DNA of 64,000 nucleotides, taken from assembly GCA_965249135.1 (NCBI GenBank), contig OZ252220.1, positions 1,952,001 through 2,016,000 on the forward strand. Reading direction: 5' to 3'. Both the position numbers and the translations under genes were made by a program. Positions 38,853 to 54,480 of this stretch are shown here, piece after piece. Every line of letters begins with the position of its first letter. Position 1 is the first letter of the stretch. The stretch is from Alphaproteobacteria bacterium. Its GTDB lineage: Bacteria > Pseudomonadota > Alphaproteobacteria > GCA-2746255. The notes beneath the pieces are model-generated. The model saw only the letters and a list, made by a program, of their open reading frames with translations. It made no database searches and was not told the origin of the DNA.

Positions 38853-39470
38853 ATGACGACTAGACTTTCACCAATGCAGGCAAGGGGATTTCGAAAAAAG
38901 GTAATTCTTTTTGCCATTCTCATTTTTGCACTCGCAGGCATTGGCGGCTTTTTCGCCTTCAAAAATGAGGTCGGGCGGATCGCCAGCATCCCCAATCTCT
39001 CCCCGGAGGAACTCTCCCAGGGCCTTTCCACGCGTAAGGAAGATTTCGTTCCCTTTGACGTGCGAACGCCGGCAGAGTTTAGAGAAAGCCACCTTGCGGG
39101 AGCGATCCGGATCGAGCCCGGGATGAAGGCGCAAGGCTTTGCTCGGGAGCATGGGGATCGGCTGGAGGGGAAGACCGTGGTTTTCTATTGTACGCTTGGT
39201 GTGCGCAGCACGCGGCTTGTCCATCGAATCCGGGATCGCCTGGAAGGCCTAGGCATTACCGCCTTCTATAACCTGAGCGGCGGCATCTTCCGATGGTCGA
39301 GGGAAGGCTATCCCGTCGTGAGGACAGAAACACCGGTGGACAGCCCCTTTACCCGCCGATCACCGATCGTTGATGAAGTTGCTGCACAACAGCGCTTTGC
39401 TCACGTTTCTCCTCGGGATAAAACAGGGTTTTCCATTACCGCTCCGATGGGTGAGGGGGACGCGCCATGA
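38853..39470 (+). CDS. Rhodanese-like protein with N-terminal membrane anchor
   Basis: FDVRT..EF..SHL.GA, active loop FYCTLGVRS, NLSGGIFRW. Confidence 0.85.
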   Translation: MTTRLSPMQARGFRKKVILFAILIFALAGIGGFFAFKNEVGRIASIPNLSPEELSQGLSTRKEDFVPFDVRTPAEFRESHLAGAIRIEPGMKAQGFAREHGDRLEGKTVVFYCTLGVRSTRLVHRIRDRLEGLGITAFYNLSGGIFRWSREGYPVVRTETPVDSPFTRRSPIVDEVAAQQRFAHVSPRDKTGFSITAPMGEGDAP

Positions 39471-40635
39471 GCACGACGACACTCGATAAGGACGCCGCCG
39501 TTTTACGCCGTTATGCGGCAGCGTCGCAGGTTCGCGAAGAGGCCTTATGCTGCGCCCCGCAATACGACCCCGCCTATCTCAAAATTCTGCCCAAGGAAAT
39601 TATCGAACGCGACTATGGCTGCGGAGATCCGACCTCTTACGTTCGTGAAGGCGAGACGGTGTTGGATTTGGGAAGCGGCAGCGGTAAAACCTGCTATGTG
39701 CTTTCGCAGGTCGTAGGGTCGTCCGGCCGTGTGATCGGCATCGATTTTAATCCCGACATGCTTGCCTTGGCGGAAAAGCACCGCCTCACAATCGCCAAGC
39801 GGATCGGCTGGGACAACGTCACCTTTTGTCGGGCTCGGATTCAAGACCTTCGGACGGATATCGGGGTCCTCGAGAAGCAAATTGCCGAGAAACCGATCGC
39901 CAGTTACGAGGATTACAGCGCTTTCGAATCTCATCACCGCGAGATGGTGACGCCACTCATTGCCGACAATAGCATCGACGTCATCGTCTCGAGCTGTGTG
40001 CTGAATCTTATCCATCCGGATGAAAAACAACTGCTATTCCAGGAGATGTATCGCGTGCTGAAAGTAGGCGGGCGCGTGGCGATCTCGGATATTGTGTCGG
40101 ATGAAGAGGTCCCGGCACGCCTACGCGAAGATGCGGAGCTCTGGTCCGGTTGTGTTTCTGGTGCCTTTCAGGAGACGGCCTTCCTGCGTGCGTTCGAAGA
40201 AGTGGGTTTCTACGGGATTTCGATCGAAAAGCGCGACTCGACTCCATGGTGCACCGTCGAGGGTGCACCGTCGAGGGAATCGAATTTCGGTCCGTAACGG
40301 TAACCGCTCACAAGGGCAAGGAGGGCCCTTGCTGGGAGCGCAATCAGGCAGTGATCTATAAGGGCCCTTGGCGGGAGGTACAGGACGATGACGGTCACGT
40401 TCTGCAACGCGGCGTACCGACGGCCGTATGTGACAAAACCTATCGGATTTTCACCCCCCCGTATAAGGGCGAGATCGATCCAGTGTCTCCTCGGGTCGAT
40501 ATTCCTTTGGAACAAGCCCATCCCTTCGACTGTTTACGCACCGTCGCACGTCATCCCAGAGAGACGAAGGGGATGGACTACGACGTCACCACGGAAGCGG
40601 CCGACGTTTGCGGATCGGAGAAGGATTGTTGTTGA
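39467..40635 (+). pseudogene. ArsM-like SAM-dependent methyltransferase, frameshifted by a 14-bp duplication
   Basis: ALCC, DYGCGDP, LDLGSGSG, SSCVLNL, LWSGCVSGA; C-terminal KGKEGPC..AVCDKT..CC in another frame; GGTGCACCGTCGAG x2 at 40248-40275. Confidence 0.8.
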
Positions 40636-40653
40636 GAGTGAGGCCGTGGCCGC

Positions 40654-41130
40654 TTAGAGCCGTTCCGCGATAGCGTCTGCGTCGGGAGCCAGGTTTGCCA
40701 GAGTGGCGACCACTTCTTCCCACTGACCGGGCTTCATTTGTTGGACAAGCTGGGTTTGTACTTTCGTCCAAAGCGGCAGGGCTTCCTTCAGTCGCTTAAC
40801 CCCTTTCGCGGTTAGGGCAAGCTCCTTATGGCGCTGCTTGGGACGGGCCTTCACCTTGATCAGACCATCCCGTTTAAGCGGCCTTAGATTGCGGGAAAGG
40901 GTTGAGGGATCCATCGCCATCTCCTGGGCAAGGCCCGAGATTGTTGGCCGATCCGCAAGCGCCGTACTGACCAGGATGGCCATTTGGTTTGCATGAAGCC
41001 CTGTGGGAGCCAGTGCTTCGTCGTAGAGCCGCGTCACCGCTCGGGAGGATCGCCGCAAGTTGTGGCAAACACAGACCTTTCTAGTCCGAGCAAATTTCTT
41101 AAGTTCTTCGCGATTCCATGCATCCGGCAT
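40654..41130 (-). CDS. MarR family regulator with N-terminal CxC
   Basis: CVCHNLRR..R.VT.LYD.AL, MDPSTLSRNL.PL.R.GL, LT.KG; start uncertain (41130 or 41136). Confidence 0.85.
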   Translation of the reverse strand: MPDAWNREELKKFARTRKVCVCHNLRRSSRAVTRLYDEALAPTGLHANQMAILVSTALADRPTISGLAQEMAMDPSTLSRNLRPLKRDGLIKVKARPKQRHKELALTAKGVKRLKEALPLWTKVQTQLVQQMKPGQWEEVVATLANLAPDADAIAERL

Positions 41131-41229
41131 GTGCATATCCCTTGATACTATCTCGGCAAGATAAGGAAAGCCGAACAATCCCACAACTTCCCAGCTTTTG
41201 GCGGCCTCTCGTCTGCTGACAAAAAACTC

Positions 41230-41281
41230 TCACAAATTTGTGATCGTCCAGAATTTGAACAGGCAAGTCCGTGTATATACA
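41230..41281. promoter_or_regulatory. Palindromes in the divergent marR / P460 intergenic region
   Basis: TCACAAATTTGTGA (41230-41243) and TGTATATACA (41272-41281). Confidence 0.45.
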
Positions 41282-41425
41282 ATCAAATATATATGGAACG
41301 ATTCTAAAAATCAAAAACAAATCTCACTTACGGATTAAGAGGATCTCCTGAGGTTGGAACGTACCGAAGGAGGAAATGCAGAAGAAAAAAGTTGGTGTAA
41401 TGCGACTTGGAATCAGGAGACTCCG

Positions 41426-42360
41426 ATGAGTGCAGATTCCCTAAAAACCCTTAAATCCGTTTTGCTATCCGGCACCATGCTTCCTTTGGTGGCGGGGGCA
41501 GGCGTTATTGCGATTGGCGTGACGCTTGGTGACACCCCTGTGCAAGCCGAGCAGCTCGCGGGCTATTACAAAAATCAGGGAACGAAGAATCCCTGTGCCG
41601 CGAAGAATCCCGATATGGCAAGGCGGGGCTGCAACCCTTGTAACCCTTGCGCGGCGAAGGGCTGTACCCCTGTGGCCCGTGCGGTCCATGCGGTGCCGCT
41701 GCAGGCCCAGAGCTTTCGGATAAGGAAGCAGACGCGCTTTATAAGAAGCTCAAGGGCAAGATGGCGAAGGCCTACAAGCAATCCGGTCTTCCCTTCGCCG
41801 CCTATTACCAGACCTGGAAACGCTTCAATACCGTCCCATACGTTTCCGCCACCCATGGCGGTCGTTATGTGAACAACTATGGGAACGCGAAGGCAGGCGC
41901 ATACAGAAAATTCGAAGAAGCTGGGAAGATGCCCAAAAGCGCCATCCTTGTGAAAGACAGCTTCACGAGCGTGGCTGCGAAAGGATGCAACCCCTATAAT
42001 CCCTGTGCGGCGAAGAACCCTTGTGCGGCGAAAGGATGCAATCCCTGCAACCCCTGCGCGGCGGAGAACCCTTGTGCGGCCAAGGGCTGCAACCCTTGCA
42101 GCCCGTGCGGTCCCTGCAACCCATGTGGGGCTACATCGAAATCTCCCATTGGTCCCCTCTTCGTCATGGAAAAGATGGGAGAAGGATTCTACCCCGCGAG
42201 CGGCGATTGGCGTTACACGATGGTCTTGCCAAACGGGCAGGTCTTTGGGACGACGAAGGGAAAGGGCTCCGACAAGGTTGAGTTCTGCATAACCTGTCAC
42301 GTAGCTGCGGAAGATTACGATCACTTGATGTTCTTGCCGGACGAATATCGGAAAAAGTAA
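41426..42360 (+). CDS. Secreted cytochrome P460-family protein with two Cys-rich NPCAAK repeat blocks (1-nt frameshift at about 41666)
   Basis: AGGAG RBS, signal peptide ending VQA; [33 protein letters not shown]...GDW.Y, C-terminal CITCH; restoring one A (TGT-AAC-CCC) joins the two ORFs. Confidence 0.8.
41585..41694 (+). repeat. NPC/GPC repeat block 1 (8 Cys after frameshift repair)
   Basis: [27 protein letters not shown][N]PCGPCGPCG. Confidence 0.85.
41974..42129 (+). repeat. NPC repeat block 2 (12 Cys) inserted within the P460 domain
   Basis: [52 protein letters not shown]. Confidence 0.9.
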
Positions 42361-42466
42361 CCGAAACCGGCATCCGAACATCCAAGCACTTTGGCCCATC
42401 CGCGGCGGCATCGCGTTAAAACGTGAGTCGCCCGGTGGTGTCAAGGTGCAAGTCTAGGGAAGAATC

Positions 42467-43495
42467 ATGCGCGAGGATTGGACAAGGCCCCTTTTATTGG
42501 CAGCTGGCATATTTATCTTTTGTGTAACCGCCTACCATCTTTTTTCAGGGAACGACGTCCTGGCCAGCGATTTGCGCAAATCCAGCGATTTGCGCAAATG
42601 GAGGTCAGAATGGCCCCATACGGACTTTGCAAAAACATCGATCGACTTCAATGAGATTTCTTCCGGGGGACCCAAGAAAGACGGTATTCCTGCAATTGAT
42701 TATCCGAGATTTAAGCCGATCGATGAGATTTCGACGGTCGGCAATGATGAACTCGTTGTGACGGTTATTATTGGTGATGAGGCACGTGCCTATCCAGTGC
42801 AAGTCCTGATGTGGCACGAGATCGTCAATGACAAGATCGGGGAGGTGCCCCTTTCCGTCACGTTCTGCCCGCTTTGCAACTCGGCAGTCGTTTTCGACCG
42901 GCGGCTGAAAGGGAAAGTCCTGGATTTTGGGACCACCGGTAAACTTCGCAACTCAGACCTCGTCATGTACGACCGTCAAACGGAAAGCTGGTGGCAACAG
43001 TTCACGGGTGAGGCGATTGCCGGATCCCTTACCGGCGAAAAATTGACGTTCCTCCCGGCGCGGGTCGAATCCTTCGCGAAGTTTCGGAAGCGGGCTCCAA
43101 AGGGAAAAGTGCTGGTCCCGAATTATACGAGCATGCGTGCCTACGGCTACAATCCCTATGCCGGCTATGACCGCAATCCCTATCCTTTCCGCTATCGGGG
43201 CGAAATGCCGTCAAACATCGCCCCGTTGGAAAGAGTCGTCTCGGTGGGGAAAGAGGCCTGGAGCCTCAAATTTCTCCGCAAACGTCGAAAGATCGTCGCC
43301 GATGGTCTTATTCTCACATGGGAATCCGGCCAGAACTCGGCGCTTGATACAGAGCGTATCAGCGAGGGGCGCGATATAGGGAATGTCATCGTCCAACGGA
43401 AAACGGCGGATGGCCCGGAAGATGCCGTTCACGACATAAGTTTTGCCTTTGCGTTTCATGCCTTTCATCCCGACGGCGTGATTCACGTGGATTAG
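42467..43495 (+). CDS. DUF3179 domain exported protein (CxxC)
   Basis: GGPKKDGIPAID.P.F, HEIVND, TFCPLCNS, FGTTGKLRNSDLVMYDRQTESWWQQFTGE; in-frame 18-bp tandem duplication at 42564-42599. Confidence 0.88.
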   Translation: MREDWTRPLLLAAGIFIFCVTAYHLFSGNDVLASDLRKSSDLRKWRSEWPHTDFAKTSIDFNEISSGGPKKDGIPAIDYPRFKPIDEISTVGNDELVVTVIIGDEARAYPVQVLMWHEIVNDKIGEVPLSVTFCPLCNSAVVFDRRLKGKVLDFGTTGKLRNSDLVMYDRQTESWWQQFTGEAIAGSLTGEKLTFLPARVESFAKFRKRAPKGKVLVPNYTSMRAYGYNPYAGYDRNPYPFRYRGEMPSNIAPLERVVSVGKEAWSLKFLRKRRKIVADGLILTWESGQNSALDTERISEGRDIGNVIVQRKTADGPEDAVHDISFAFAFHAFHPDGVIHVD

Positions 43496-43567
43496 GGAAA
43501 CCCGGGTCGACGCGATGGGGATTATCAGCCCCGACGGCAATCAGAAAATACTATATTTTTCAACAAA

Positions 43568-45148
43568 CTACGCAAAGTTGATCGGCCGTCCGATGAGCGA
43601 TTCCGTAAGCCGTGCCGTGTTCCGGGCAACCAGCGCATAAATCGATACCTGGGGATTGACGCCGAGGCTCGTCGGAAAGACGGATCCATCAAAAATGGAA
43701 AGCCCTTCGACTTGGTGATGGCGACCAAACGAATCGACGACCCCAAGCTTGGCATCGTCCGACATCGCACAGCCGCCCATGATATGTGCAGAGAAGATAA
43801 GTGCGCGAGGAGGTTTCATCGAAAGACCCTCGGTGATCGCCTGTTTTGCCTCTCGCCAGCTTTCATAAGGCCGCGTCTCCCGGTGAACGGGAAAAACGGA
43901 TTTTGCACCTGCTGCAAAGCTAAGTTCCGCCATCGAAAGATAAGCGTGACGGAATCCTTCCCAGTGAAATTCATTTGTACGGTAGTCGAGCACGGGACTT
44001 TCATCTTTTTGGAGAACGACCGTGCCGCCTTCGAAAGAGGGATTGAACCCATCCCGTATTAGCGCAATCAAGGCATGCGTATAGGGAAGCTGCGCCATCC
44101 CGTCTGCACGCTGATCACCGAACGTCGGGATCGAAATCGCCGCATGAACGGGGAAAAGCGGAGGCACCTCAAGTTTATAGCCGACCTTTCCATCGATACC
44201 GTCGCGCCAGAGAAACTCATCCGAATAGATCGACTGCGGTGCTCCATCGAAAGGCAGGACTTCTTTCGATAATTCACCGGCAAGGGCATTGACCGGATGG
44301 AGGAAGGTTCGTTTACCAAGCCGTTGATAAGGATCTGGAATCTTGGATCGGAGAAGCAGGCCGGGTGAATTGATGCCACCCCCCGCCACGACGACGTTTG
44401 ATGCATAAACCCTGATCTTCCGGCCGTTCGGATGAATACCTTCCGGATCGAGAGCCAGACACTGCACCATTTTCACCTGACCGTGCGCCGTTTCGATCTT
44501 CCTGGCTCTGGCATGGCTGATCAGGATGGCGCCGTGGTCAAGCGCCGCTGGAATCGTCGTTACCAGCATGGATTGTTTCGCATTCGTCGGGCATCCATAG
44601 CCGCAATAGCTGATGTTCCAGCATCCACGGACATTCCGGGACACGATGCCATGTTTCCAGCCAAGGGCATCGCAGCCACGAAGCAGCGCGCCGTTGTTGG
44701 CATTCGGAGGCACGTCCCAGGGCGCGATGGCAAAGCGGCGTTCCACCATTTCGAACCACGGCGCCATCGTCTCTGCGTCCGTCTCCTTCACGCCAAACGC
44801 TTCCGCCCAATGGGCAAGGGTCTCGGGCGGCGTGCGGAAGCTTGCCGTCCAGTTGACGACGGTGCCGCCGCCGACGGCCCGCCCCTGAAGGATGGTGATT
44901 GCCTTGTCCTTCGTCTTATGGCTTCCCGTGTCCCAATAGAGCCTACGGTAGGCGTCCCCCTCCCGGCCCGTGAAATCACGCGCCGTCCAATAGCCGCCTT
45001 CCTCGATCAGCACGACCTGCAGGCCGGCCTGGGCCAGCATTTCCGCCGCCACGCCGCCGCCGGCACCGGTACCGATGATGGCGACATCGGCGGCGAAGCT
45101 TTCGTCCTTCTCGAGCGTCGCAGCGTCGATATGGATTTGTTCCGCCAT
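43568..45148 (-). CDS. GMC family oxidoreductase (long-chain alcohol oxidase-like)
   Basis: IGTGAGGG FAD motif, GRAVGGGTVVNW, C..GCP.NAKQS, SAHIMGGC, DGSVFPTSLGVNP. Confidence 0.9.
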   Translation of the reverse strand: MAEQIHIDAATLEKDESFAADVAIIGTGAGGGVAAEMLAQAGLQVVLIEEGGYWTARDFTGREGDAYRRLYWDTGSHKTKDKAITILQGRAVGGGTVVNWTASFRTPPETLAHWAEAFGVKETDAETMAPWFEMVERRFAIAPWDVPPNANNGALLRGCDALGWKHGIVSRNVRGCWNISYCGYGCPTNAKQSMLVTTIPAALDHGAILISHARARKIETAHGQVKMVQCLALDPEGIHPNGRKIRVYASNVVVAGGGINSPGLLLRSKIPDPYQRLGKRTFLHPVNALAGELSKEVLPFDGAPQSIYSDEFLWRDGIDGKVGYKLEVPPLFPVHAAISIPTFGDQRADGMAQLPYTHALIALIRDGFNPSFEGGTVVLQKDESPVLDYRTNEFHWEGFRHAYLSMAELSFAAGAKSVFPVHRETRPYESWREAKQAITEGLSMKPPRALIFSAHIMGGCAMSDDAKLGVVDSFGRHHQVEGLSIFDGSVFPTSLGVNPQVSIYALVARNTARLTESLIGRPINFA

Positions 45149-45495
45149 CAGACTACCTTTTGCACCTCGTCCGGGATGTCCGGCGGCCCGTCATAGCCCA
45201 CCCAGGGCCAGGCGCGCGGATTGTCGTACCAGGCGGCCATAACCAAGTCGTGGAAGGCGGCATAGGCAAGCTGCAGGAGCGTAAATGAGCTCGTCGACCA
45301 ACGGCCCCCAGGAAATCCTCCACCTCTTTCCCGGAGGCCGTCTCCCAGCCGCTCCAAATGCCCGTGAGTGCTATTCTGGCCGGCGGGAAGTCCAATAGGT
45401 CGAAAAGCTGGCGCAGGTCAGCCTGCATCAGGGGGGACATGGCGGCGATTAGGCGGTCGATTTCACCCAAGATTTCGGCAATCGCAGCCGGCCGC
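45148..45495 (-). pseudogene. Small partner subunit of the GMC enzyme, 5'-truncated and frameshifted
   Basis: L.QLFDLL...R..LTG.W..W in one frame, then W..S...LL..AY......AAWY..P..W..GY.GPP in another; shift at the C5 run 45305-45309; no N-terminus before the acyl-CoA synthetase stop. Confidence 0.65.
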
Positions 45496-45496
45496 C

Positions 45497-47122
45497 CTAA
45501 CCGGCCTTGTGCGCTCCGTCCTGCTTGCGCAGTTTCCGACGCATGATCTTGCCGGTTGCCGTCATCGGCAATTCGGAAACGAACTCAACTTCGCGCGGAT
45601 ATTCATGCGCCGCAAGACGCGACTTTACGAAAGCCTGAATCTCGCTCGCCAGCGCATCATTTGGCGAGAACTCCGGCTTGAGAACGACGAATGCCTTGAC
45701 GACCTCTGTGCGCACCGGATCCGGGATGCCGATGGCAGCGACCAGCGCGATGGCCGGATGCTTCATCACGCATTCCTCGATCTCACCGGGACCGATGCGA
45801 TAGCCAGCGCTGGTGATAATGTCATCGTCGCGACTCTTGTACCAAAAGTAGCCCTCGTCATCCTTACTTGCCAGATCGCCGGTCAGACACCAATCGCCGA
45901 TGAATTTCTTCTTGGTGGCTTCCGGGTTCCGCCAATATTCGAGAAACATCACTGGATCCGGGCGTTGGATTGCAACCTGACCGACGGTCCCCGGTGCTAC
46001 CGGATGACCCTCCTCGTCGACGATATCGACGTTATGCCCTGGGATCGGACGTCCCATGGAACCAGGTCTCACGGGCAGAATGGTAGCGCAATTGCCCAGC
46101 ACCAAATTGACCTCGGTCTGACCATAGAACTCATTAATGGTAAGGCCGAATACCTCGTCCCCCCAACGCAACAATGCCTCGCCCAGCGTTTCGCCGCCAC
46201 TGCCAAGGCTTCGTAGGTTGACGGCATGACGTTCCTTCGGATTTTCGACCTGACGCATGAGCTTGAGAGCGGTCGGCGGCAGGAAGACGTTGCGTACATT
46301 GTGCTTTGCGATCAGATGAAACGCATGTTCAGGATCAAACTTGCGCGCCCGGTGGGCGAGAACCGGAATGCCATGATGCCAACTCGGCAACAGCACATCG
46401 ATCAGTCCGCCGATCCATGCCCAATCCGCCGGTGTCCAGAACAGATCTCCCGGCTGCGGAAACAGGTTGTGAGGAAACTCGACCCCTGGCAGATGACCGA
46501 GCAGTACACGATGGGCATGTACGGCTCCTTTCGGCGGGCCGGTCGTGCCGGAGGTATAGATGATCAGTGCCGGGTCATTGGCGGTCGTGGCGACAGGCTT
46601 GAAATCGGCCGACGCCTCATCGAGGAGGGCCCAGAAATTGGCAGTGTCTTCATCCTTTCCCTCAGTCACGATAATGGTGGAAAGGCTCGGCAGGCGGTCG
46701 CGAATGGTGAGTAGCTTTTCAAGATTTGAACCGTCCGTGACGACCACGCGGGCATCGCTGTTGGCGAGCCGGTATTCGATGGCATCCGGTCCAAACAGCG
46801 TAAACAGCGGAACGGCAATACCCCCCGCTTTGTAGACGGCAAGGTGGGTAATCGCCGCTTCGGGGGATTGCGATAGCAAAATGCCAACGCGTTCGCCGCG
46901 CTCGAGACCCAAAGCCTGTAACACGTTCGCGAAACGATTGGAAAGTTTTCTCAGTTGACCAAAGGTGTAGGTGGTAACGTTGCCGGCCTCGTCTTCGTAG
47001 ATTAAGGCCCGTTTATTGGCCGGGTGCTTGTCGCAGACATCGATGCCAAGGTTGTATTGCTCGGGCACCTCCCAGCGAAATGCTTGGCGAATTTCCTCGT
47101 AGCTTTTGCCCGGTTTTAGCAT
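45497..47122 (-). CDS. Acyl-CoA synthetase (AMP-forming, short/medium chain)
   Basis: YTSGTTGPPKG, DWAWIGG, EFYGQTE, TGD, RIGPGEIE, TATGKI; start uncertain (47122 vs 47161). Confidence 0.9.
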   Translation of the reverse strand: MLKPGKSYEEIRQAFRWEVPEQYNLGIDVCDKHPANKRALIYEDEAGNVTTYTFGQLRKLSNRFANVLQALGLERGERVGILLSQSPEAAITHLAVYKAGGIAVPLFTLFGPDAIEYRLANSDARVVVTDGSNLEKLLTIRDRLPSLSTIIVTEGKDEDTANFWALLDEASADFKPVATTANDPALIIYTSGTTGPPKGAVHAHRVLLGHLPGVEFPHNLFPQPGDLFWTPADWAWIGGLIDVLLPSWHHGIPVLAHRARKFDPEHAFHLIAKHNVRNVFLPPTALKLMRQVENPKERHAVNLRSLGSGGETLGEALLRWGDEVFGLTINEFYGQTEVNLVLGNCATILPVRPGSMGRPIPGHNVDIVDEEGHPVAPGTVGQVAIQRPDPVMFLEYWRNPEATKKKFIGDWCLTGDLASKDDEGYFWYKSRDDDIITSAGYRIGPGEIEECVMKHPAIALVAAIGIPDPVRTEVVKAFVVLKPEFSPNDALASEIQAFVKSRLAAHEYPREVEFVSELPMTATGKIMRRKLRKQDGAHKAG

Positions 47123-47279
47123 GCTTCTTCCCAAAAAATTTATTGGTTTTTTTTCATTCATCTACCCACTTAAACTTGTTGTGGATTATGACCAGCGTCT
47201 TTGGTCGCACCTAGCATTTTTCAGAACTCCTTGTATGCTAAGGGGTTCTTACTAAATAAGGGGGCAGGAGTCAGAACGG

Positions 47280-48551
47280 ATGATGGTGAAGACAAGGATC
47301 ATTTGGATATGGGCCATGTTGGCCGCTGGCCTGATCTTTGGGATTCCGGCTTATGCCGAAGAAGTGCCCGAAGGGACAGTCATCAGCGCCAAGAATCTTG
47401 GCTCCCTTCTCGATAAGACCTTCGAGGGGGAAACCATTCAGAATCTTATCTCTGAGCAGTTTCAGTGGCAGATTCGCGAGAAGGGTCTGACGATGAAACT
47501 TAAGCATTCGAAGCCTCATCCAAAGGATCCGCAATGGGTGGCGGCGACGAATCGCAATCTGGAAGCGGTAACGCTGGATGGCGCAACGAATCAGGTGAAT
47601 GGCTGGCTGGCTGGTGCGCCTTTTCCGGCGATCGACTTGCAAGACCCGAAGGCGGGCATCAAGGTCATGTGGAACATGTTCCTGGGCAAGCAGCAGGGCG
47701 ATAGTCAGGAATACCCGAACACGGTCATTGCACTTCTCAACGACAAATCAGGGCTCGAACGGGTCCAGAAACAATTTGTCAAGCGGGTTTTCGTGAGAGG
47801 GGCTTTGCGCCGGGGCGGGCAAGTCTCCGAAGAGAAGAGAATCTTGGAAAAAACGCTTTCCGTCCTGACCGCACCCCTGGACTTGAAGGGAAATGGGCTG
47901 GTCCTGATCCGCTACGTAAATGGGGATCCGGATTGGCTATTGGCCTACGCGGTAGCGGCGCGCAAAGTACGGCGTTTTTCAGGGGCCTTCTGGATGGATA
48001 AGTTGGGTGCCACGGACTTCCTTACCGACGATTTGATGGTCTTGAGCGCACATCCGACCTGGTATCCAGAATTCAAGATAATCGCGAAAAAGAAGATCCT
48101 TGTAGTTGCCCATTCGAAGGACCCTTTCTGGCAGCCAAAGGCTGCCACGCCCCAAGAACGATTTCCTCTCTTCGATTTAGGAACGCCACCCTATTGGAAT
48201 CCGGTCGATGAGTGGGAACCCCGTGAGGTCTACGTCGTCGAGGGAAAAACGCCCGAACAGCACCCCTATAGCCGCAAGGTGGTCTATGTCGATGCCGAGT
48301 TCTGGACCCCTTATTTGGGCGAGTATTACACGCCGAAGGGGCAGCTCTGGAAAACGACGATCCAGGGCTACAGCGTCTTCCCGACCCAGGATGATCCAGA
48401 CGGAAAGGTCTTGTGGCCGACATGGTCGGCGGTTTTTGATTTTCAGATCGGCCACGCCACTATTCTGATGACGGATGAAAACATCCGATTCAATACCGAT
48501 ATTTCGCCAACGGAAATCAATCTGAAGGCCGTCAAAAGAGCAAAGTGGTGA
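47280..48551 (+). CDS. DUF1329-like exported protein
   Basis: Signal peptide, G.PFP...P.AG..VMWN, AP.DL.G, RKVRR, WEPREVYVVE..P..HPYSRKV.YVD.E. Confidence 0.75.
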   Translation: MMVKTRIIWIWAMLAAGLIFGIPAYAEEVPEGTVISAKNLGSLLDKTFEGETIQNLISEQFQWQIREKGLTMKLKHSKPHPKDPQWVAATNRNLEAVTLDGATNQVNGWLAGAPFPAIDLQDPKAGIKVMWNMFLGKQQGDSQEYPNTVIALLNDKSGLERVQKQFVKRVFVRGALRRGGQVSEEKRILEKTLSVLTAPLDLKGNGLVLIRYVNGDPDWLLAYAVAARKVRRFSGAFWMDKLGATDFLTDDLMVLSAHPTWYPEFKIIAKKKILVVAHSKDPFWQPKAATPQERFPLFDLGTPPYWNPVDEWEPREVYVVEGKTPEQHPYSRKVVYVDAEFWTPYLGEYYTPKGQLWKTTIQGYSVFPTQDDPDGKVLWPTWSAVFDFQIGHATILMTDENIRFNTDISPTEINLKAVKRAKW

Positions 48552-48576
48552 GGGGTAGCTTTTTGTGAAGCATCGC

Positions 48577-48613
48577 AAAACCGGGCAGAGCCGATAGGCT
48601 CCGCCCGGTTTTT
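48577..48613 (+). terminator. Rho-independent terminator after DUF1329
   Basis: AAAACCGGGCAGAGCC-GATA-GGCTCCGCCCGGTTTTT. Confidence 0.75.
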
Positions 48614-48657
48614 ATATGTGCCGTCTCATAGGATGCCTTCCACATAAGAGGAAGCTC

Positions 48658-48689
48658 AAAAAAAAGAGGAGCGCGAAAGCGCCCCTCTT
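48658..48689 (-). terminator. Rho-independent terminator of the minus-strand gene
   Basis: AAGAGGAGCGC-GAAA-GCGCCCCTCTT hairpin preceded by an A8 run (U-tract on the minus strand). Confidence 0.7.
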
Positions 48690-48715
48690 GCATAAATCCG
48701 GAACGAATTTAGGTT

Positions 48716-49834
48716 CTAGCTCGCATCGGTCTCGAAATAAAGCGTCTTCTTGTACTCATCCGGAAGGGCGAACAAATAATTGGATTTTGCGCCTCTTTCC
48801 TTTGTGATATCTGCAGCACTACCTTTGGCGTCGATCCTGGTGATCTTCCAGTCGCCGGTTGCAGCGCTGAAGCCTTTTTCCATCTTTTCAAGAATGACGA
48901 GCTCGCCGGCCCTCCACCTGGCGGTGAAGCCGGTGCGATTGCCATCACCGTGGAAGCTCTCCAGCACGAGAATCGTGTCGGCCGGCATCCGGTTGAAATT
49001 GCCCCACTTGTCCACCTTGTCGTTTGCATAAAGGTTGACGTAATGGTCGCCGGTGTATTTTCCGATTTGGAAGGGAACGAAGTTATAGCGCTTCCATTCC
49101 GTGTATTCGGAAACGATCTCGTTCTGGGATTTTTCCCACTCTTCCACCATCTTCCATCCAACCGCCATATAGAGGGCCTGCGCTTCCTTCTTCGAGAGCT
49201 TGTTGCGGGCGACCAATTCAGCTTGCTCTTCAGCCGACCTCAAGTCTTCACGACCGATCACTTCGCCGCGCACGACTGGAGATTCAATGGCGTTGACGAC
49301 CAAGGCGTCTCCCTCGGTGTGAACGATGATCTCCCAGAACATGCCGGTTGCGAAAAGCGACGTCACGGCAAGAACGAACTGATCGTAGTCAAACGGCTCA
49401 CCCGGACGTGTACGCTTGGCGTGGTCTTCGCCCAAGATATAGCGTTCGGCAAAACCTGCTTCGAGATCCTTCTCGCCCTCGACGCGAAGCTCTTTAACGA
49501 CCTTGCCGTTCTTCATAGGCCAAGTCTTGCCGGCACCGGGCGCGTAGAACGTGCCAGGGAGGTCAATCGTATCCGGGTAAAACCGGTAATAGTCCTTCGG
49601 CAAATCTTGCGTGAAGTTTTGGGGGGCGGCATCTGTTCGATCGTGATGCGTGAACGTGTTTTCTTTCACGTTGTAGATATGCCCGCCCCGAATGAAGGTG
49701 TCTGGTGCGTCCGGCGATTCGGCCCTGGCAGACGTGCCCATGACCAGAGCGGCTGTCGTTACGACGACAGCCCCAAAGGCTATTGGAAGTATCGCTCCGG
49801 ACGACAGAAGGGATTTCACGAAACTGGAACTCAT
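48716..49834 (-). CDS. Exported protein with a C-terminal heme-less cytochrome P460-like domain
   Basis: Signal peptide ending ARA; C-terminal LSKKEAQALY, WKRYN.VP, HYVNLYAN, MP..ILVLESF, LEKM.KGF...GDW, LPDEYKK align with 41426-42360; no cysteine in the protein. Confidence 0.75.
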   Translation of the reverse strand: MSSSFVKSLLSSGAILPIAFGAVVVTTAALVMGTSARAESPDAPDTFIRGGHIYNVKENTFTHHDRTDAAPQNFTQDLPKDYYRFYPDTIDLPGTFYAPGAGKTWPMKNGKVVKELRVEGEKDLEAGFAERYILGEDHAKRTRPGEPFDYDQFVLAVTSLFATGMFWEIIVHTEGDALVVNAIESPVVRGEVIGREDLRSAEEQAELVARNKLSKKEAQALYMAVGWKMVEEWEKSQNEIVSEYTEWKRYNFVPFQIGKYTGDHYVNLYANDKVDKWGNFNRMPADTILVLESFHGDGNRTGFTARWRAGELVILEKMEKGFSAATGDWKITRIDAKGSAADITKERGAKSNYLFALPDEYKKTLYFETDAS

Positions 49835-50094
49835 GGCTTCCTCGCTGTCTTTGTTCTGTTTAGAAATTCTTTGTTTTTTATCGTTGGCGCCAAGCTGGCG
49901 CGTTGAATTATTTAACATATTTTCAACGGGTCAGGAAATCTAGTCAATATCGCTTGATTGGTGGCCTGACTTTGCGGGCGCGGGAGACCAGGGCTTGGCC
50001 TTATTTCTTAAGCTGTTGATCTGACTTAAGAACTGGGATTAACCTTAGCGACGATACCGAATTTTAAAAGCCGGCCCAGAGGCGCCAGGGTGCA

Positions 50095-50802
50095 ATGACC
50101 GACCAAAACCCGATTTCTCGCCCTAAACTCGAGGCCATGCTGACGGCCGGCCACGAGATCCTGGAATGCTACCGGCTGCTCACCAAGACAGGCGACAACG
50201 TCGTCGGCGAGCTGATTCGCGGTCACGAGACCTTCTATGAGTGGAATCACTATCCCGAGGGGGATGCCTACGATCCGGAGACCCATTCCCAGTACTACTA
50301 CCACGCCCATCGGGAGGATCGGGAGGAACACGGCCATTTCCACACCTTCCTGCGGCCAAAGGGCATGCCTTCGGATATCCTGCCGGCTCTTTTGGCGGAT
50401 TTCGAGCCGCCTGAAGGCGACAACGCCGCCCTCAGCCATCTCATCGCCATCTCGATGGATGCCCATGGGTACCCGACCGGACTGTTCACCACGAACCGCT
50501 GGGTGACCGGCGAGGTCTGGTATGCCGCAAAGGATGTCTGCCGGATGGTTGAAATTTTCGAGATGGATCAGGCGCGTCCATCCTGGCCAGTCAATCGCTG
50601 GGTTACGGCAATGCTGCGGCTTTTTCAGCCGGAAATTTTTGATCTCCTTTCACGTCGCGACGCGGCGGTAAAAGCCTGGGAGGAGAAGCATCCGGATCGC
50701 AATGTTTACGAAGACCGGGAATTCGAGGTCGCTTCCGAAATCGACATTTCCGTGGAGGGTAAACTTCGCCAACTCGAAGCGATGCTCCAGGAAAGCGCCT
50801 GA
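50095..50802 (+). CDS. Conserved hypothetical protein with His-rich motifs (DUF6969-like)
   Basis: HYP.GD.YD, QYYYHAH, EHGHFHTF, SHLIAISMD, FTTNRWVTGE; family name from recall only. Confidence 0.65.
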   Translation: MTDQNPISRPKLEAMLTAGHEILECYRLLTKTGDNVVGELIRGHETFYEWNHYPEGDAYDPETHSQYYYHAHREDREEHGHFHTFLRPKGMPSDILPALLADFEPPEGDNAALSHLIAISMDAHGYPTGLFTTNRWVTGEVWYAAKDVCRMVEIFEMDQARPSWPVNRWVTAMLRLFQPEIFDLLSRRDAAVKAWEEKHPDRNVYEDREFEVASEIDISVEGKLRQLEAMLQESA

Positions 50803-50830
50803 TATCGGCGCGATTCATCGGTCGAAATGG

Positions 50831-50866
50831 AAAAGGCGCCGCTACCCGTTAAGGTGACAGCGCCTT
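50831..50866 (-). terminator. Terminator downstream of cytochrome c2
   Basis: AAGGCGC...GCGCCTT hairpin followed by TTTT on the minus strand. Confidence 0.55.
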
Positions 50867-50888
50867 AAAAGCATGCGGTTCGGAAGGC

Positions 50889-51266
50889 TTACTTTGCCGC
50901 TTCCTTCAAATACGCGATTAGATTCTGGCGTTGGGCTTCCTTCTTCAGTCCCGGGAAGGCCATTTTGTTGCCTTTAATGTAGGTCTTCGGGCTTGCAAGA
51001 TAGGCGTCGATCGTTTCTTCGTTCCAGGTGACGCCCGCCGCCTGCATCGCCTTCGAGTAGTTGAAACCTTCCGCCGTTCCCGATTTCCGACCGAAGATGC
51101 CGGCAAGGGAGGGACCTACTTTGTGTTTGCCAGCCTCCAATGTGTGACAGGCTTTGCACTTTTTAAAAACCTTTGCGCCTTTTTTCGCGTCACCCGCCAA
51201 CGCGGATACACTCGACAGTGCGAGCACTAAGGCAACCGAAACGGCCAGAATCTTCGATGATTTCAT
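50889..51266 (-). CDS. cycA: Cytochrome c2 (class I)
   Basis: Signal peptide, GDA.KG.KVF.KCKACH, KVGP.L.G, YS.AM, GNKMAF.G. Confidence 0.9.
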
Positions 51267-51420
51267 CTATTCTCTCCTGAACCTTTCACAGGCTTGGGGA
51301 ATTCGTTCAAAATGCGTCCGCAGTATCCGAAAGATATAGGCGCCTTGCAACCGGTTAGCTGGAAATCGGCCGAATCATTGTTCCCATACGGGACGCACCC
51401 TCAGACGTAATGCCCGCGTC

Positions 51421-52530
51421 TTAAAAAGGCGTAAATCCAGACTGACCCCCCATACGACGGTAACGGAAAGGGGGCGGCGCCTCGCCAGGCTCGCTTTCCA
51501 CCAAGCGTCTTACCAAGTCGTGGTCTGGGGAAAGTTCACAGACCGGGTCCGTGTTTGCCGCGTTTCCGGTCAACATCAGCGCCTGGCAACGACAGCCCCC
51601 CCAATCGACTTCTCGCCGGTCGCAGGACCGGCAGGGCTCTGGCATCCAGTCGGTACCTCGGAAACGATGGAAGGCGTCCGATTCCAACCAGATATCGGTC
51701 AAACTCCGCTCCCGGACATTGTCGAAGTGAAGGTCGGGGATGGTCTCGGCGGCATGGCACGGAAGCACCTTGCCGGATGGGCTTACATTCAGGAATTGGT
51801 TGCCCCATCCGCCCATGCAGGCCTTTGGCCGCCTCGCATAGTAATCCGGCGGCACGTAATCGATGAGTAGAACCCCCTTCAGCCGCTCTTCCGCCTCCAC
51901 GACGACGGCATTTGCCGCTTCAATCTGCTCACGGCTGGGAAGCAGTGCACGTCGGTTTTCGATGGCCCATCCGTAATATTGGGCATGGGCGATCTCCAGC
52001 CGTCCGGCGCCGAGATCGACGGCAAGATCAATCATTGCGTCCAGCCGCTCCAGATTCTGGCGGTGAAAGACGCAATTGATCGTGAGCGCAAGGCCGGCAT
52101 CGCGAATAAGCCGTGCCACCGTAAGTTTCTTTTTGTGTGCACCTTGTATGCCGGCGATCCGGTCTGCTGGCTCAGCAGAGACGTCCTGAAGACTGAGTTG
52201 AACATGCTCGAGGCCAGCTTTCCTAAGTGCGGCAATCTTCGATTCATCAAGGGGGATGCCAGAAGTGATCAGGTTCGTATAAAGCCCAAGGCCTGTGGCA
52301 TGGCGAACGAGGGTGGAGAGGTCCTTGCGAGCGGCGGGTTCGCCGCCGGAGAAGTGGATTTGATAGGCGCCAAGGGCAGCTGCTTCCTCCACTACCCGGC
52401 ACCATTCCTCCGTTCCTAGTTCGTCGCCTACGCCCTCCAGTGCCAGCGGGTTCGAGCAATATGGGCATTGCAGCGGGCAGCGGTGGGTGAGCTCGGCTAG
52501 CACGGCAAGAGGGGGTGCCGGCGTGTTCAT
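51421..52530 (-). CDS. pqqE: PqqA peptide cyclase (radical SAM/SPASM)
   Basis: LAELTHRCPLQCPYCSNP, QYYGWA, PKACMGGWG, LPCHAA, CRSC...DWGGCRCQA. Confidence 0.97.
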   Translation of the reverse strand: MNTPAPPLAVLAELTHRCPLQCPYCSNPLALEGVGDELGTEEWCRVVEEAAALGAYQIHFSGGEPAARKDLSTLVRHATGLGLYTNLITSGIPLDESKIAALRKAGLEHVQLSLQDVSAEPADRIAGIQGAHKKKLTVARLIRDAGLALTINCVFHRQNLERLDAMIDLAVDLGAGRLEIAHAQYYGWAIENRRALLPSREQIEAANAVVVEAEERLKGVLLIDYVPPDYYARRPKACMGGWGNQFLNVSPSGKVLPCHAAETIPDLHFDNVRERSLTDIWLESDAFHRFRGTDWMPEPCRSCDRREVDWGGCRCQALMLTGNAANTDPVCELSPDHDLVRRLVESEPGEAPPPFRYRRMGGQSGFTPF

Positions 52531-52814
52531 ACCGCAAGGATCCCCTGATCCGCGAGGTCCTGAAGAAGCTCCAATACGTCCTCCCCAACCCTTTCGCTGG
52601 AGGTCTCGTAGCGCTCGGCAAGGGTTGTAACCATAGCAGCAACGGATGAATTCCCATCGCAGAGCTTCAGTACCTCGACCGCGATTTCGTCTGGCACGAG
52701 AAGGCGTTCCGGGGCCAGCACGATCCACCGCCCGCGCTTTTCATCGAAACGAAACCGAACATGCGGCGCAAGTCGTGGCATGGTCTCGGTGTCAAGCACA
52801 CGTCGTTTATTCAT
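52527..52814 (-). CDS. pqqD: PqqD peptide chaperone
   Basis: R.D..R..W.VLAPER, EVL.LCDG, DV...L..L. Confidence 0.95.
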   Translation of the reverse strand: MNKRRVLDTETMPRLAPHVRFRFDEKRGRWIVLAPERLLVPDEIAVEVLKLCDGNSSVAAMVTTLAERYETSSERVGEDVLELLQDLADQGILAV

Positions 52815-53551
52815 GCACCGCTCTCCGGTTGGAAGGCGCCAGGTGGAACCCGTCCGGGATCAACATAGGCATAGGTAAGCGCATCCAGCTGTGTCCACAA
52901 AACGTCACATTTGAAGTGGAGGGCCTGAAGGACGCGTTGCTGGGCTTCTGCCGTTCGTGCTTCCCTCTTCACATAGTCGAGGGCAAAATCGGCGTCCCGC
53001 GTTGCCTGGTCGAGGCGCTTGCGAAAATAGGAAAGCGTCGTCTCATCGATGAAATCGTAGTGTTCCAGCATGCCGGCGATCCGCTCGCGATGGATTTTCG
53101 GCGCGAAGAGTTCCGTCAATGAAGAGGCGATTCCCTCAAGAAGGGATCGCTCGGCGACGAAGTGAACATAGGCTTTCACGGCAAACCGCGTGGCTGGCAG
53201 GACCCCTTGCATGGAGACGACGTCGTCCCGGGGAAGTCCCAGGCCATCCGTCAGTTTCAGCCAACGGGCGATACCCCCCTCGCGTTCCGGCGTCCCGTCG
53301 TGATCCTCGATGCGAACACGCCAGGCGCGTCGGAGTGCCGGGTCCGTCATACGCGAAAGCAGCACGGCATCCTTGATCGGAATGTGCGCTTGATAGCAAT
53401 AGCGGTTAAGTGCCCAAGCCTGCACCTGTCCTTTCCGAAGCTTCCCTCCGTGAAGAAGTGCATGGAAAGGATGCTTGTCATGATAGCGCTCGGCTCCGAT
53501 CGCATGCAGCGCCGCTTCAAGTTCATCCGGTGTCAATGGCACGCCACTCAC
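52811..53551 (-). CDS. pqqC: PQQ synthase
   Basis: RYHDKHPFH, WALNRYCYQ, DHDG, ASSLTELFAP, FKCDVLW.QLDAL. Confidence 0.97.
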   Translation of the reverse strand: MSGVPLTPDELEAALHAIGAERYHDKHPFHALLHGGKLRKGQVQAWALNRYCYQAHIPIKDAVLLSRMTDPALRRAWRVRIEDHDGTPEREGGIARWLKLTDGLGLPRDDVVSMQGVLPATRFAVKAYVHFVAERSLLEGIASSLTELFAPKIHRERIAGMLEHYDFIDETTLSYFRKRLDQATRDADFALDYVKREARTAEAQQRVLQALHFKCDVLWTQLDALTYAYVDPGRVPPGAFQPESGA

Positions 53552-54480
53552 AACTGAATCTCCATGCCGTCATAGGCCACTTCCCAGCCCTTCTCGGTAA
53601 CCGACTCGCGTTCCGGCGAATCATCCATGAGAACAGGGTTCGTATTGTTGAGATGAACGAAGATTTTCCGTTTCACCTCTAACGTCCGAAAGGCGGCAAG
53701 GCTACCTTCTTCACCGGAGATACTCATGTGTCCCATACGCTTTCCCGTCTTTACGCCAGTGCCGGCCGTGACCATTTCATCGTCCTGCCATAGCGTTCCG
53801 TCGAAAAACACAAGGGGCGTCTTACGAAGGCGCTTCGCCAACCCATCGGGGAAGGCCGCGCAGCCCGGTATGTAATAGAAATAACCATCCCCCGTCTCGG
53901 ATGCCACCCGAAGCGCGATGGTGTCTTCCGCAACGCTGCCGAAATCTGGTCCCGCCGTCGGATCCTCCAGATAAAGCGCCACTTTCCCCGGGACGGTGAA
54001 TGCCTCGACGACGAGGCCGGAGGGAGCGCGATCGGCGTTTTCGAGTCGCGTTGGTGTGTCGAGGGTAAATTTTCTCCGGCTCACTACCTCAGGGTTTAGC
54101 GCTTGAAAAATTTGATTTGCATCGAAAGTCCCGTGCACCCTTGCCGTCGCGTAAAGGCTTAACGGTTGCCCCTCACGAAGGGTAAGAAGCCCTGCGATGT
54201 GATCGACATCGGCATTCGTCACCACGACACCGCCAATCGGACTGTGCCTTGCCCCATCCGCTGGATGAAGGGCCGGATTGTCGTTCAGTTGCTGGCGAAG
54301 ATCGGGGGAGGCGTTGAGAAGAAACCAGGGCCCTTCATCCGCGCGCACGGCAAGGGAGGACTGGGTTCTGGGGTGGACTTTCGGATCCCCCGAACGGGCG
54401 CGCTGGCAGACGGGGCAGTTACAGTTCCACTGAGGGAGCCCCCCACCGGCAGCCGATCCCAGAACGAGAATCTGCAACAA
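53548..54480 (-). CDS. pqqB: PqqB metallo-beta-lactamase-fold hydroxylase
   Basis: VLGSAAGGG.PQWNCNC, RTQSS, NASPD, MGHM, HLNNTNP. Confidence 0.97.
   Translation of the reverse strand: MLQILVLGSAAGGGLPQWNCNCPVCQRARSGDPKVHPRTQSSLAVRADEGPWFLLNASPDLRQQLNDNPALHPADGARHSPIGGVVVTNADVDHIAGLLTLREGQPLSLYATARVHGTFDANQIFQALNPEVVSRRKFTLDTPTRLENADRAPSGLVVEAFTVPGKVALYLEDPTAGPDFGSVAEDTIALRVASETGDGYFYYIPGCAAFPDGLAKRLRKTPLVFFDGTLWQDDEMVTAGTGVKTGKRMGHMSISGEEGSLAAFRTLEVKRKIFVHLNNTNPVLMDDSPERESVTEKGWEVAYDGMEIQL

Follow-up and report, generated by a model that had tools for sequence, protein, structure and literature searches.

Cytochrome P460 (CytL) and cytochrome c'-beta (CytS), both covered by PF16694, serve as models for one fold that carries different heme chemistry, hydroxylamine oxidation in the former and nitric oxide binding in the latter. 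POTRA domains act by beta-augmentation and are, to our knowledge, almost confined to Omp85 transporters and FtsQ, whose periplasmic arms they form. In FtsQ/DivIB a membrane anchor and a POTRA are followed by a C-terminal beta domain, which binds partners by beta-augmentation. A literature search found no description of a P460-POTRA fusion or of a heme-less P460. The gene analysed here is predicted to code for a protein of that kind. It lies on the minus strand at positions 48716..49834 of a 64,000-nucleotide stretch of alphaproteobacterial DNA (GenBank assembly GCA_965249135.1, contig OZ252220.1, positions 1,952,001 to 2,016,000; the whole stretch is referred to below as the window), and the listing of open reading frames (ORFs) gives it as an intact gene for 372 amino acids plus stop.

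The C-terminal part of the protein resembles cytochrome P460 and c'-beta in its twisted beta-sheet fold and sequence core, and the protein resembles them in its predicted export. It differs from them in having no CxxCH, no Cys, no cross-link Lys and not the Phe that c'-beta has at that site; its N-terminal part, with the POTRA, makes it about 160 residues longer, and it misses the Pfam threshold. The POTRA is like POTRA1 of BamA (Omp85, PF07244; structures 2qdf and 3efc), with 35% identity over 91-99 residues and the same order of elements. Unlike BamA, the protein has a single POTRA, with a P460-fold domain in place of the Omp85 barrel, a 7-residue insertion and no Pfam score. To FtsQ/DivIB it is similar in the order of its parts only (hydrophobic N-terminal segment, one POTRA, beta-rich C-terminal domain); no sequence relation was found, the Foldseek match to FtsQ (8hhf_Q) was weak and ranked 50 (E 0.54, prob 0.44), and the POTRA is of the BamA type.

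With high confidence, the protein starts with a signal/anchor segment and a new segment of ~70 residues, goes on with a POTRA1 derived from BamA and ends in a P460 domain that lacks heme. The parts were delimited as follows.

Residues 1-38, 49721..49834, minus strand: signal/anchor segment, hydrophobic and ending in A-x-A (ARA/AKA), from the family alignment.
Residues 39-109, 49508..49720, minus strand: family-specific segment, from the invariant residues in the family alignment.
Residues 110-190, 49265..49507, minus strand: POTRA domain, a BamA POTRA1 homologue that runs into the first strand of POTRA2.
Residues 196-367, 48734..49249, minus strand: helical linker and heme-less P460/c'-beta-fold domain, from alignments, AlphaFold and Foldseek.

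The preliminary description of this DNA had reported that the C-terminal ~160 residues align with a P460 gene 6 kb away, and had proposed that the alignment and the fold be checked; the alignment proved significant and the predicted fold was that of P460/c'-beta. Against the neighbouring ORF (41647-42360, plus strand), BLASTP gave an alignment at E 5e-22 in which 61/220 positions are identical (28%); a Cys-rich insertion in the neighbour accounts for most of its 65 gap columns. Comparison of the profile of the protein's family with that of the neighbour's family (hhalign) gave 99.85% probability and E 1.6e-30 over 153 columns. Similarity at this level goes far beyond what chance would give, and the homology to the neighbouring P460 gene is thus real. 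When 1.84 billion cluster representatives were searched exhaustively with the family profile (HMMER), 168 proteins were found at E <= 1e-3, 150 of which were listed. Among the 150 matches listed, one was the representative of the protein's own family (the sole full-length match, E 1.8e-196), 126 aligned at profile positions ~200-345 and 23 at ~90-200. Thirty of the 126 C-domain matches were scanned with Pfam; PF16694 was found at E <= 0.01 in 28 and its gathering score was reached by 23. The protein itself gave no Pfam family at E <= 1, the POTRA and P460 models included; it stays below the PF16694 gathering threshold, and its P460 kinship is visible only with the profile of its own family or by profile-profile comparison.

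A model was computed with AlphaFold2 from a 120-row alignment of nine family members, 91 P460-type and 20 POTRA matches, the rows being chosen by length and coverage from the 149 listed non-self matches. Mean predicted local distance difference test (pLDDT) was 76.1, with most of residues 210-360 above 90. The C-domain was compared with the PDB using Foldseek and matched McP460 (6hiu; prob 1.00, E 6.5e-4, TMt 0.51) and McCP-beta (9hqt and 6hih; TMt 0.54-0.55, prob 1.00); c'-beta and P460 of N. europaea and c'-beta of T. thermophilus were also matched with prob 1.00, and the entries matched at this level include 7s5o, 2je2 (P460 of N. europaea) and 7ead. The P460 fold is mainly beta-sheet, with five antiparallel strands and helices, and the modelled C-domain is assigned to the P460/c'-beta fold. 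No P460 chain was present among the 46 matches at E <= 1 when the PDB was searched with the family profile, and a search of the ESM Atlas with the whole protein gave no usable match.

The heme-binding positions were inspected in a profile built from 80 heme-bearing relatives, to which 127 relatives (the 126 search matches and the neighbour) and nine members of the protein's family were aligned. CxxCH is present in 92 of the 127 relatives and deleted, with a gap of ~14 residues, in all nine family members. Of the 35 relatives in which CxxCH was not aligned, 27 lack the motif columns (many are fragments that end earlier) and eight have a variant or partial motif. The column of the cross-link Lys (A-K-D-S-F motif) holds K in 104/127 relatives and L or I in 9/9 family members; a conserved His column holds H in 119/127 relatives and T, F or Y in the family. 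In the protein itself these sites are L291 and T261, and the ~14-residue deletion follows residue ~349. Cys is absent from all nine members. The preliminary description had noted the missing CxxCH segment, the change of Lys to Leu and the absence of Cys, and all three hold throughout the family, with L or I in the Lys column. The core motifs W.RYN, Y.N.YAN, MP...L..SF, EKM..GF and GDW are retained, so that the family lost its cofactor site but preserved the fold. Across 144 P460 sequences very few features are fully conserved, CXXCH and the Lys among them, and the P460 cofactor is defined by the Lys cross-link (PMC6427953). Since a c-type heme cannot bind and the P460 cross-link is absent, the protein cannot carry out the chemistry known for P460 and c'-beta; as judged from its residues, it can be neither a c-type heme protein nor a hydroxylamine oxidase of known type.

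The preliminary description had left the N-terminal ~170 residues unrecognised. This still applies to Pfam, which has no match there, and to residues 39-109, but residues ~110-190 are a POTRA and residues 1-38 a signal/anchor segment. The POTRA assignment rests on several searches. All 23 N-domain matches listed contain PF07244 POTRA (E 6e-8 to 3.5e-4 in the profile search) and look like N-terminal pieces of BamA-type proteins. BLASTP against two BamA N-terminal fragments gave 35% identity in both cases (91 residues, E 6e-18; 99 residues, E 4e-15), and the second alignment reaches into the first strand of POTRA2. The family profile also matched solved structures of BamA in the PDB, with E 2.2e-5; BamA/YaeT made up 40 of its 46 matches at E <= 1, and rows for FimG (E 0.27-0.44) were regarded as chance. 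Foldseek aligned the POTRA part with E. coli YaeT/BamA (2qdf and 3efc) at 31% identity and a root mean square deviation of 2.7-3.0 Å over 75-80 columns. The sole NCBIfam match was a sub-threshold one to BamA (18.6 bits, cutoff 297). Thus sequence similarity to POTRA domains is significant by profile, PDB profile search and BLASTP, though the Pfam model is silent at E <= 1, and the beta-alpha-alpha-beta-beta order is found in the model (DSSP: E115-119, H128-134, H150-162, E166-174, E177-184). The 7-residue insertion lies between the POTRA helices and is invariant in the family (G135-E-D-H-A139, R141). The C-terminal 16-stranded barrel of Omp85 is replaced by the P460-fold domain of 170 residues, with which the protein ends; no beta-barrel was seen in the model or in the Pfam and NCBIfam searches of the protein. 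The presence of a BamA-POTRA1-type domain in the N-terminal part changes the functional picture of the protein.

Residues 39-109 contain family invariants (F47, R49-G50-G51-H52, Y83-R84-F85-Y86-P87 and W105-P106). They have no detectable relatives: none of the non-family profile matches listed (150 of 168) extends before about profile position 88. The signal/anchor segment is predicted to direct export and to be cleaved. Its pattern K..LLS..P...G.G, in residues 1-38, recurs at the N-termini of the Cys-repeat P460 family to which the neighbour belongs, where an ad hoc pattern for the segment was matched by 51/119 proteins.

The protein's family is narrowly distributed. It forms one cluster at 50% identity and ten clusters at 90% identity, eight full-length and two fragments. 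In GTDB, with one genome for each of 185,579 species, two loci (L001 and L002) encode the protein, one in a Rhodospirillaceae metagenome-assembled genome and one in an alphaproteobacterial metagenome-assembled genome. The sole name in any source is 'hypothetical protein'. Ratios of nonsynonymous to synonymous substitution (dN/dS) were calculated by the Nei-Gojobori method between the three genomic copies (window, L001 and L002).

Whole gene: dN/dS 0.13-0.17.
Residues 39-110: dN/dS 0.12-0.22.
POTRA domain: dN/dS 0.11-0.19.
C-domain: dN/dS 0.08-0.12.

Overall dS was 0.8-2.5, near saturation in the pairs with the window and 0.8-0.9 for L001 against L002. No stop or frameshift was found in the three genomic copies or in the eight full-length database homologues, and 130+ columns are invariant among the nine intact full-length family members (9/9). 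The gene is under purifying selection. Intact homologues under such selection, for which the preliminary description had proposed a search, therefore exist, with dN/dS of 0.08-0.22 in the mature domains, and its idea of a repurposed P460 fold is reasonable given nine intact homologues of nine, purifying selection and the Foldseek matches to P460.

The minus-strand frame is open over 48716..49918. The start at 49834 was taken to be the right one because 8/8 full-length homologues, from a search of 5.8 billion protein clusters, have the same Met and the same first residues, and because a Shine-Dalgarno sequence (GAGGAA) precedes it. A longer ORF of 400 amino acids, from an in-frame ATG at 49918 (84 nt upstream), was rejected; the homologues start later, and upstream indels in L001 and L002 are not multiples of three. 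The extension is therefore not conserved as coding in these two loci, and automatic annotation may over-extend the gene. Signals were found on both sides of the gene.

48664..48689, minus strand: terminator-like hairpin and T-run, 27 nt past the stop, with 11 pairs (7 G-C) and a loop of 4.
49835..49970, minus strand: conserved promoter and 5' leader, the core of which (49913-49948) holds the promoter-like TTGACT-17-GAAAAT.

An intact ORF with its own terminator, as first described, was thereby confirmed by the shared start, the Shine-Dalgarno sequence and the 11-pair hairpin with T-run. Over the proximal ~135 nt upstream of the start, identity between the window, L001 and L002 is 71-78%, and it falls to 44-52% in the distal intergenic part; promoter and leader are conserved above background, as expected of a regulated, functional gene. 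The promoter core occurs once in the window, and the leader downstream of the promoter-like site is ~85 nt long. No Rfam family matched the leader at its gathering score (best were a snoRNA model at 21.6 bits, cutoff 65, and preQ1 at 15.6, cutoff 39), and covariation was seen in 0/22 predicted pairs of the consensus fold, from three sequences only. The gene is monocistronic, divergent from a DUF6969 gene and convergent with a DUF1329 gene.

Together with its surroundings it belongs to a block shared with the two GTDB loci.

Window 39467-54480, L002 224-13827: conserved gene block.

In L002 the order is pqqBCDE, cytochrome c, DUF6969 (divergent), the POTRA/P460-fold gene and DUF1329 (LolA-like; convergent), then a small ORF with a GMC oxidoreductase, DUF3179, an intact Cys-repeat P460 gene for 285 aa and an ArsM-like methyltransferase. 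L001 has the same gene order up to the end of its contig. An acyl-CoA synthetase gene (45497-47161, minus strand) lies between DUF1329 and the GMC pair in the window and is found in neither L001 nor L002. The small ORF before GMC has 105 aa in the window and 189 and 215 aa in the two loci.

The nearby P460 gene is the window's counterpart of the Cys-repeat P460 gene of the block.

41426..42360, plus strand: heme-bearing Cys-repeat (NPC) P460-domain gene, broken by a frameshift near 41664.

It scores 27.9 bits with PF16694 Cytochrome_P460 (cutoff 27), and its AlphaFold model gave TMt 0.65-0.71 to c'-beta and P460 structures in Foldseek. Alignment with the intact 285-aa L002 orthologue shows a 10-nt gap near 41664, among the Cys-rich repeats of the N-terminal region; the gene is read in two frames, and signal peptide and P460 domain are out of frame with each other. 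The frameshift could mark a real pseudogene, or this repetitive stretch could have been wrongly sequenced or assembled. At E <= 1e-10 the family of this neighbour numbers at least 900 proteins, with a best identity of 69%. Tandem Cys-rich repeats of the N-P-C-A-A-K type stand before its P460 domain and are inserted in it (window 41560-41700 and 41950-42130). Among 119 of the matches listed for this family (P0178-P0296), 118 have at least three NPC motifs and all 119 have CxxCH.

A FastTree phylogeny was made from 237 sequences over the first 136 profile columns and midpoint-rooted. A row was used only if it had at least 110 matched positions, and among those dropped for this reason was the window's own neighbour (P0002), in which the repeat insertion splits the match. 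The nine sequences of the POTRA/P460-fold family form one clade (support 0.995) on a long stem (0.96), and the leaves nearest to it are P0106 and P0019, at moderate supports (0.71-0.91). From this clade to the L002 copy of the neighbour the tree distance is 2.87, against a median of 2.94 over all relatives. The placement is uncertain because of the 136 columns, the dropped rows, the midpoint root and the long stem. A recent tandem duplication of the neighbour as the origin of the gene is not supported, as the tree does not group the two. The 'paralogue' of the preliminary description thus stands as to homology and falls as to close duplication; on the tree, the two genes are family paralogues and not a recent duplicate pair. 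Their shared signal-segment pattern suggests that the POTRA/P460-fold gene descends from the Cys-repeat subfamily.

Taken as a whole, the results are best explained by an exported, non-catalytic, four-part 'pseudo-cytochrome' that would act as a periplasmic adaptor, a reading that we adopt tentatively. It is favoured because the known chemistry is excluded, because two binding modules are under purifying selection and because POTRA domains act by beta-augmentation. In the mechanism proposed, which is possible though doubtful in detail, each of the two modules, the POTRA and the P460 domain without heme, would bind something and hold it, be it a partner or a ligand. The POTRA would offer an exposed beta-edge to which a partner polypeptide would bind by beta-augmentation, as with BamA POTRA1, which binds SurA by beta-strand complementation (PMC11970506). 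The heme-less P460 domain would provide a second binding surface, either the vacated heme cradle or the dimer surface of the family, and the protein would hold or escort its partner instead of catalysing a reaction. A more specific form of this proposal, which we regard as improbable, sees in the protein the first POTRA outside Omp85 and FtsQ: its BamA-derived POTRA1 would dock to the chaperone and beta-barrel assembly machinery (BAM) pathway or to a client, the heme-less P460 domain would recognise specific cargo, and the whole would be a stand-alone periplasmic or inner-membrane-tethered adaptor. The cargo might, with equally little likelihood, be the Cys-repeat P460 cytochromes that share the signal segment, in which case the protein would be their dedicated escort factor. 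Several points weigh against an adaptor. Since the gene is monocistronic, its operon context offers no partner. Both domains are divergent, as the Pfam POTRA and P460 models miss E <= 1, and residues 1-72 are modelled at low confidence (pLDDT mostly < 50). The synteny may reflect common descent, as only three related genomes are available. The periplasmic location, the beta-augmentation and the adaptor role are all steps that we infer.

Two other explanations place the function in the P460 domain. The vacated cradle might bind heme b, another tetrapyrrole, a lipid or a quinone-type cofactor, with the POTRA serving only to tether or localise the protein. Retention of the fold at high model confidence after loss of the cofactor residues is consistent with such a small-molecule or non-covalent tetrapyrrole binder, as are the invariant aromatic residues of the C-domain (W233, W247, Y265, Y269, W277, W307 and W329); the fusion of P460 domains elsewhere to cyclase, TIR and caspase domains suggests ligand-sensing use. 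We consider it unlikely, however, because the C-domain has no invariant His or Cys that could be an axial ligand (H295 is kept in 8/9 members) and because the 14-residue deletion takes away the proximal side of the pocket. Less likely still would be a heterodimer with the heme-bearing Cys-repeat P460 paralogue, which the protein would pair with by the dimer mode of the family and modulate or tether. The solved P460 and c'-beta proteins are homodimers (PMC6427953), the family-type N-terminal signal motif is common to both genes, and in the window as in L002 one conserved block contains them both. Yet the neighbour is frameshifted in the window while the POTRA/P460-fold gene is intact (a sequencing error is possible), 6 kb lies between the genes, which belong to different transcription units, and the tree does not bring them near each other (2.87 against the median of 2.94). 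The sizes of the families also disagree: with at least 900 members on one side and a single 50%-identity cluster on the other, nearly every protein on the larger side functions with no partner of this kind. A complex predicted from residues 196-372 of the protein and the P460 domain of the neighbour (18-237) had a score of 0.00 and a mark of 0.32; run without controls, it speaks neither for nor against binding.

A further explanation starts from the POTRA. As the POTRA is specifically like BamA POTRA1 (all 23 N-domain matches listed bear a POTRA, and 40 of 46 PDB matches are BamA/YaeT) and the similarity carries on into the start of POTRA2, the protein might be a decoy or regulator directed at BAM or SurA, a copy of POTRA1 that competes with BamA POTRA1, or docks beside it, for SurA or nascent outer-membrane proteins. 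SurA binds POTRA1-2 alone with a dissociation constant of 16 uM (PMC11970506). The window offers no link to BAM genes, however, and the invariant insertion and 65% sequence divergence may have altered specificity. We consider a decoy improbable. That the gene is a decaying, functionless relic of a P460 gene is hardly credible. The cofactor site is wholly lost, the distribution is very narrow and the only name is 'hypothetical protein', but the selection data contradict decay: dN/dS is 0.08-0.22 in all mature domains at dS 0.8-2.5, the nine full-length members of nine are intact with 130+ invariant columns, and the gene has a conserved promoter and leader and its own terminator.

Whether or not it acts as the periplasmic adaptor favoured here, a selected, natural member of the P460 fold that is unable to bind c-heme implies that the fold also has a cofactor-free use, and the protein is a ready-made 'apo' scaffold for comparison with P460 and c'-beta. 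With a single BamA-type POTRA joined to a soluble domain that is unrelated to it, the range of known uses of the POTRA module would grow. The partner, if found, could reveal a lineage-specific periplasmic assembly or escort step. Because the family is so narrowly distributed, these points have limited practical weight.

Other P460-like proteins without an intact CxxCH, for which the preliminary description had suggested a search, were found in the form of six relatives with a degenerate motif. These (P0065, P0090, P0094, P0140, P0143 and P0157) make up a separate heme-degenerate clade of six leaves (support 0.993). They have CxxC followed by D, L, T, S or N in place of the axial His, L, A or T in the Lys column, and no Pfam match. 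Unlike the protein described here, they keep both Cys, have no POTRA and are 305-570 aa long. Acidic low-complexity tails were seen in P0065 and P0094, the two sequences of this clade that were inspected. Because this second clade exists, cofactor loss is not unique to the POTRA/P460-fold gene, and heme was probably lost at least twice independently in the P460 family.

Among P0083, P0104, P0133 and P0124, CxxCH-bearing P460 domains are fused to an adenylate/guanylate cyclase, a caspase (Peptidase_C14), a TIR and a LysM domain. These fusions suggest use of the P460 fold as a sensor module in signalling and possibly in defence proteins. Elsewhere the window holds ordinary core genes of the chromosome, including those for AsmA, ThyX, HflKC, a DegP-like protease, ilv/leu, mreBC and PBP2/RodA.

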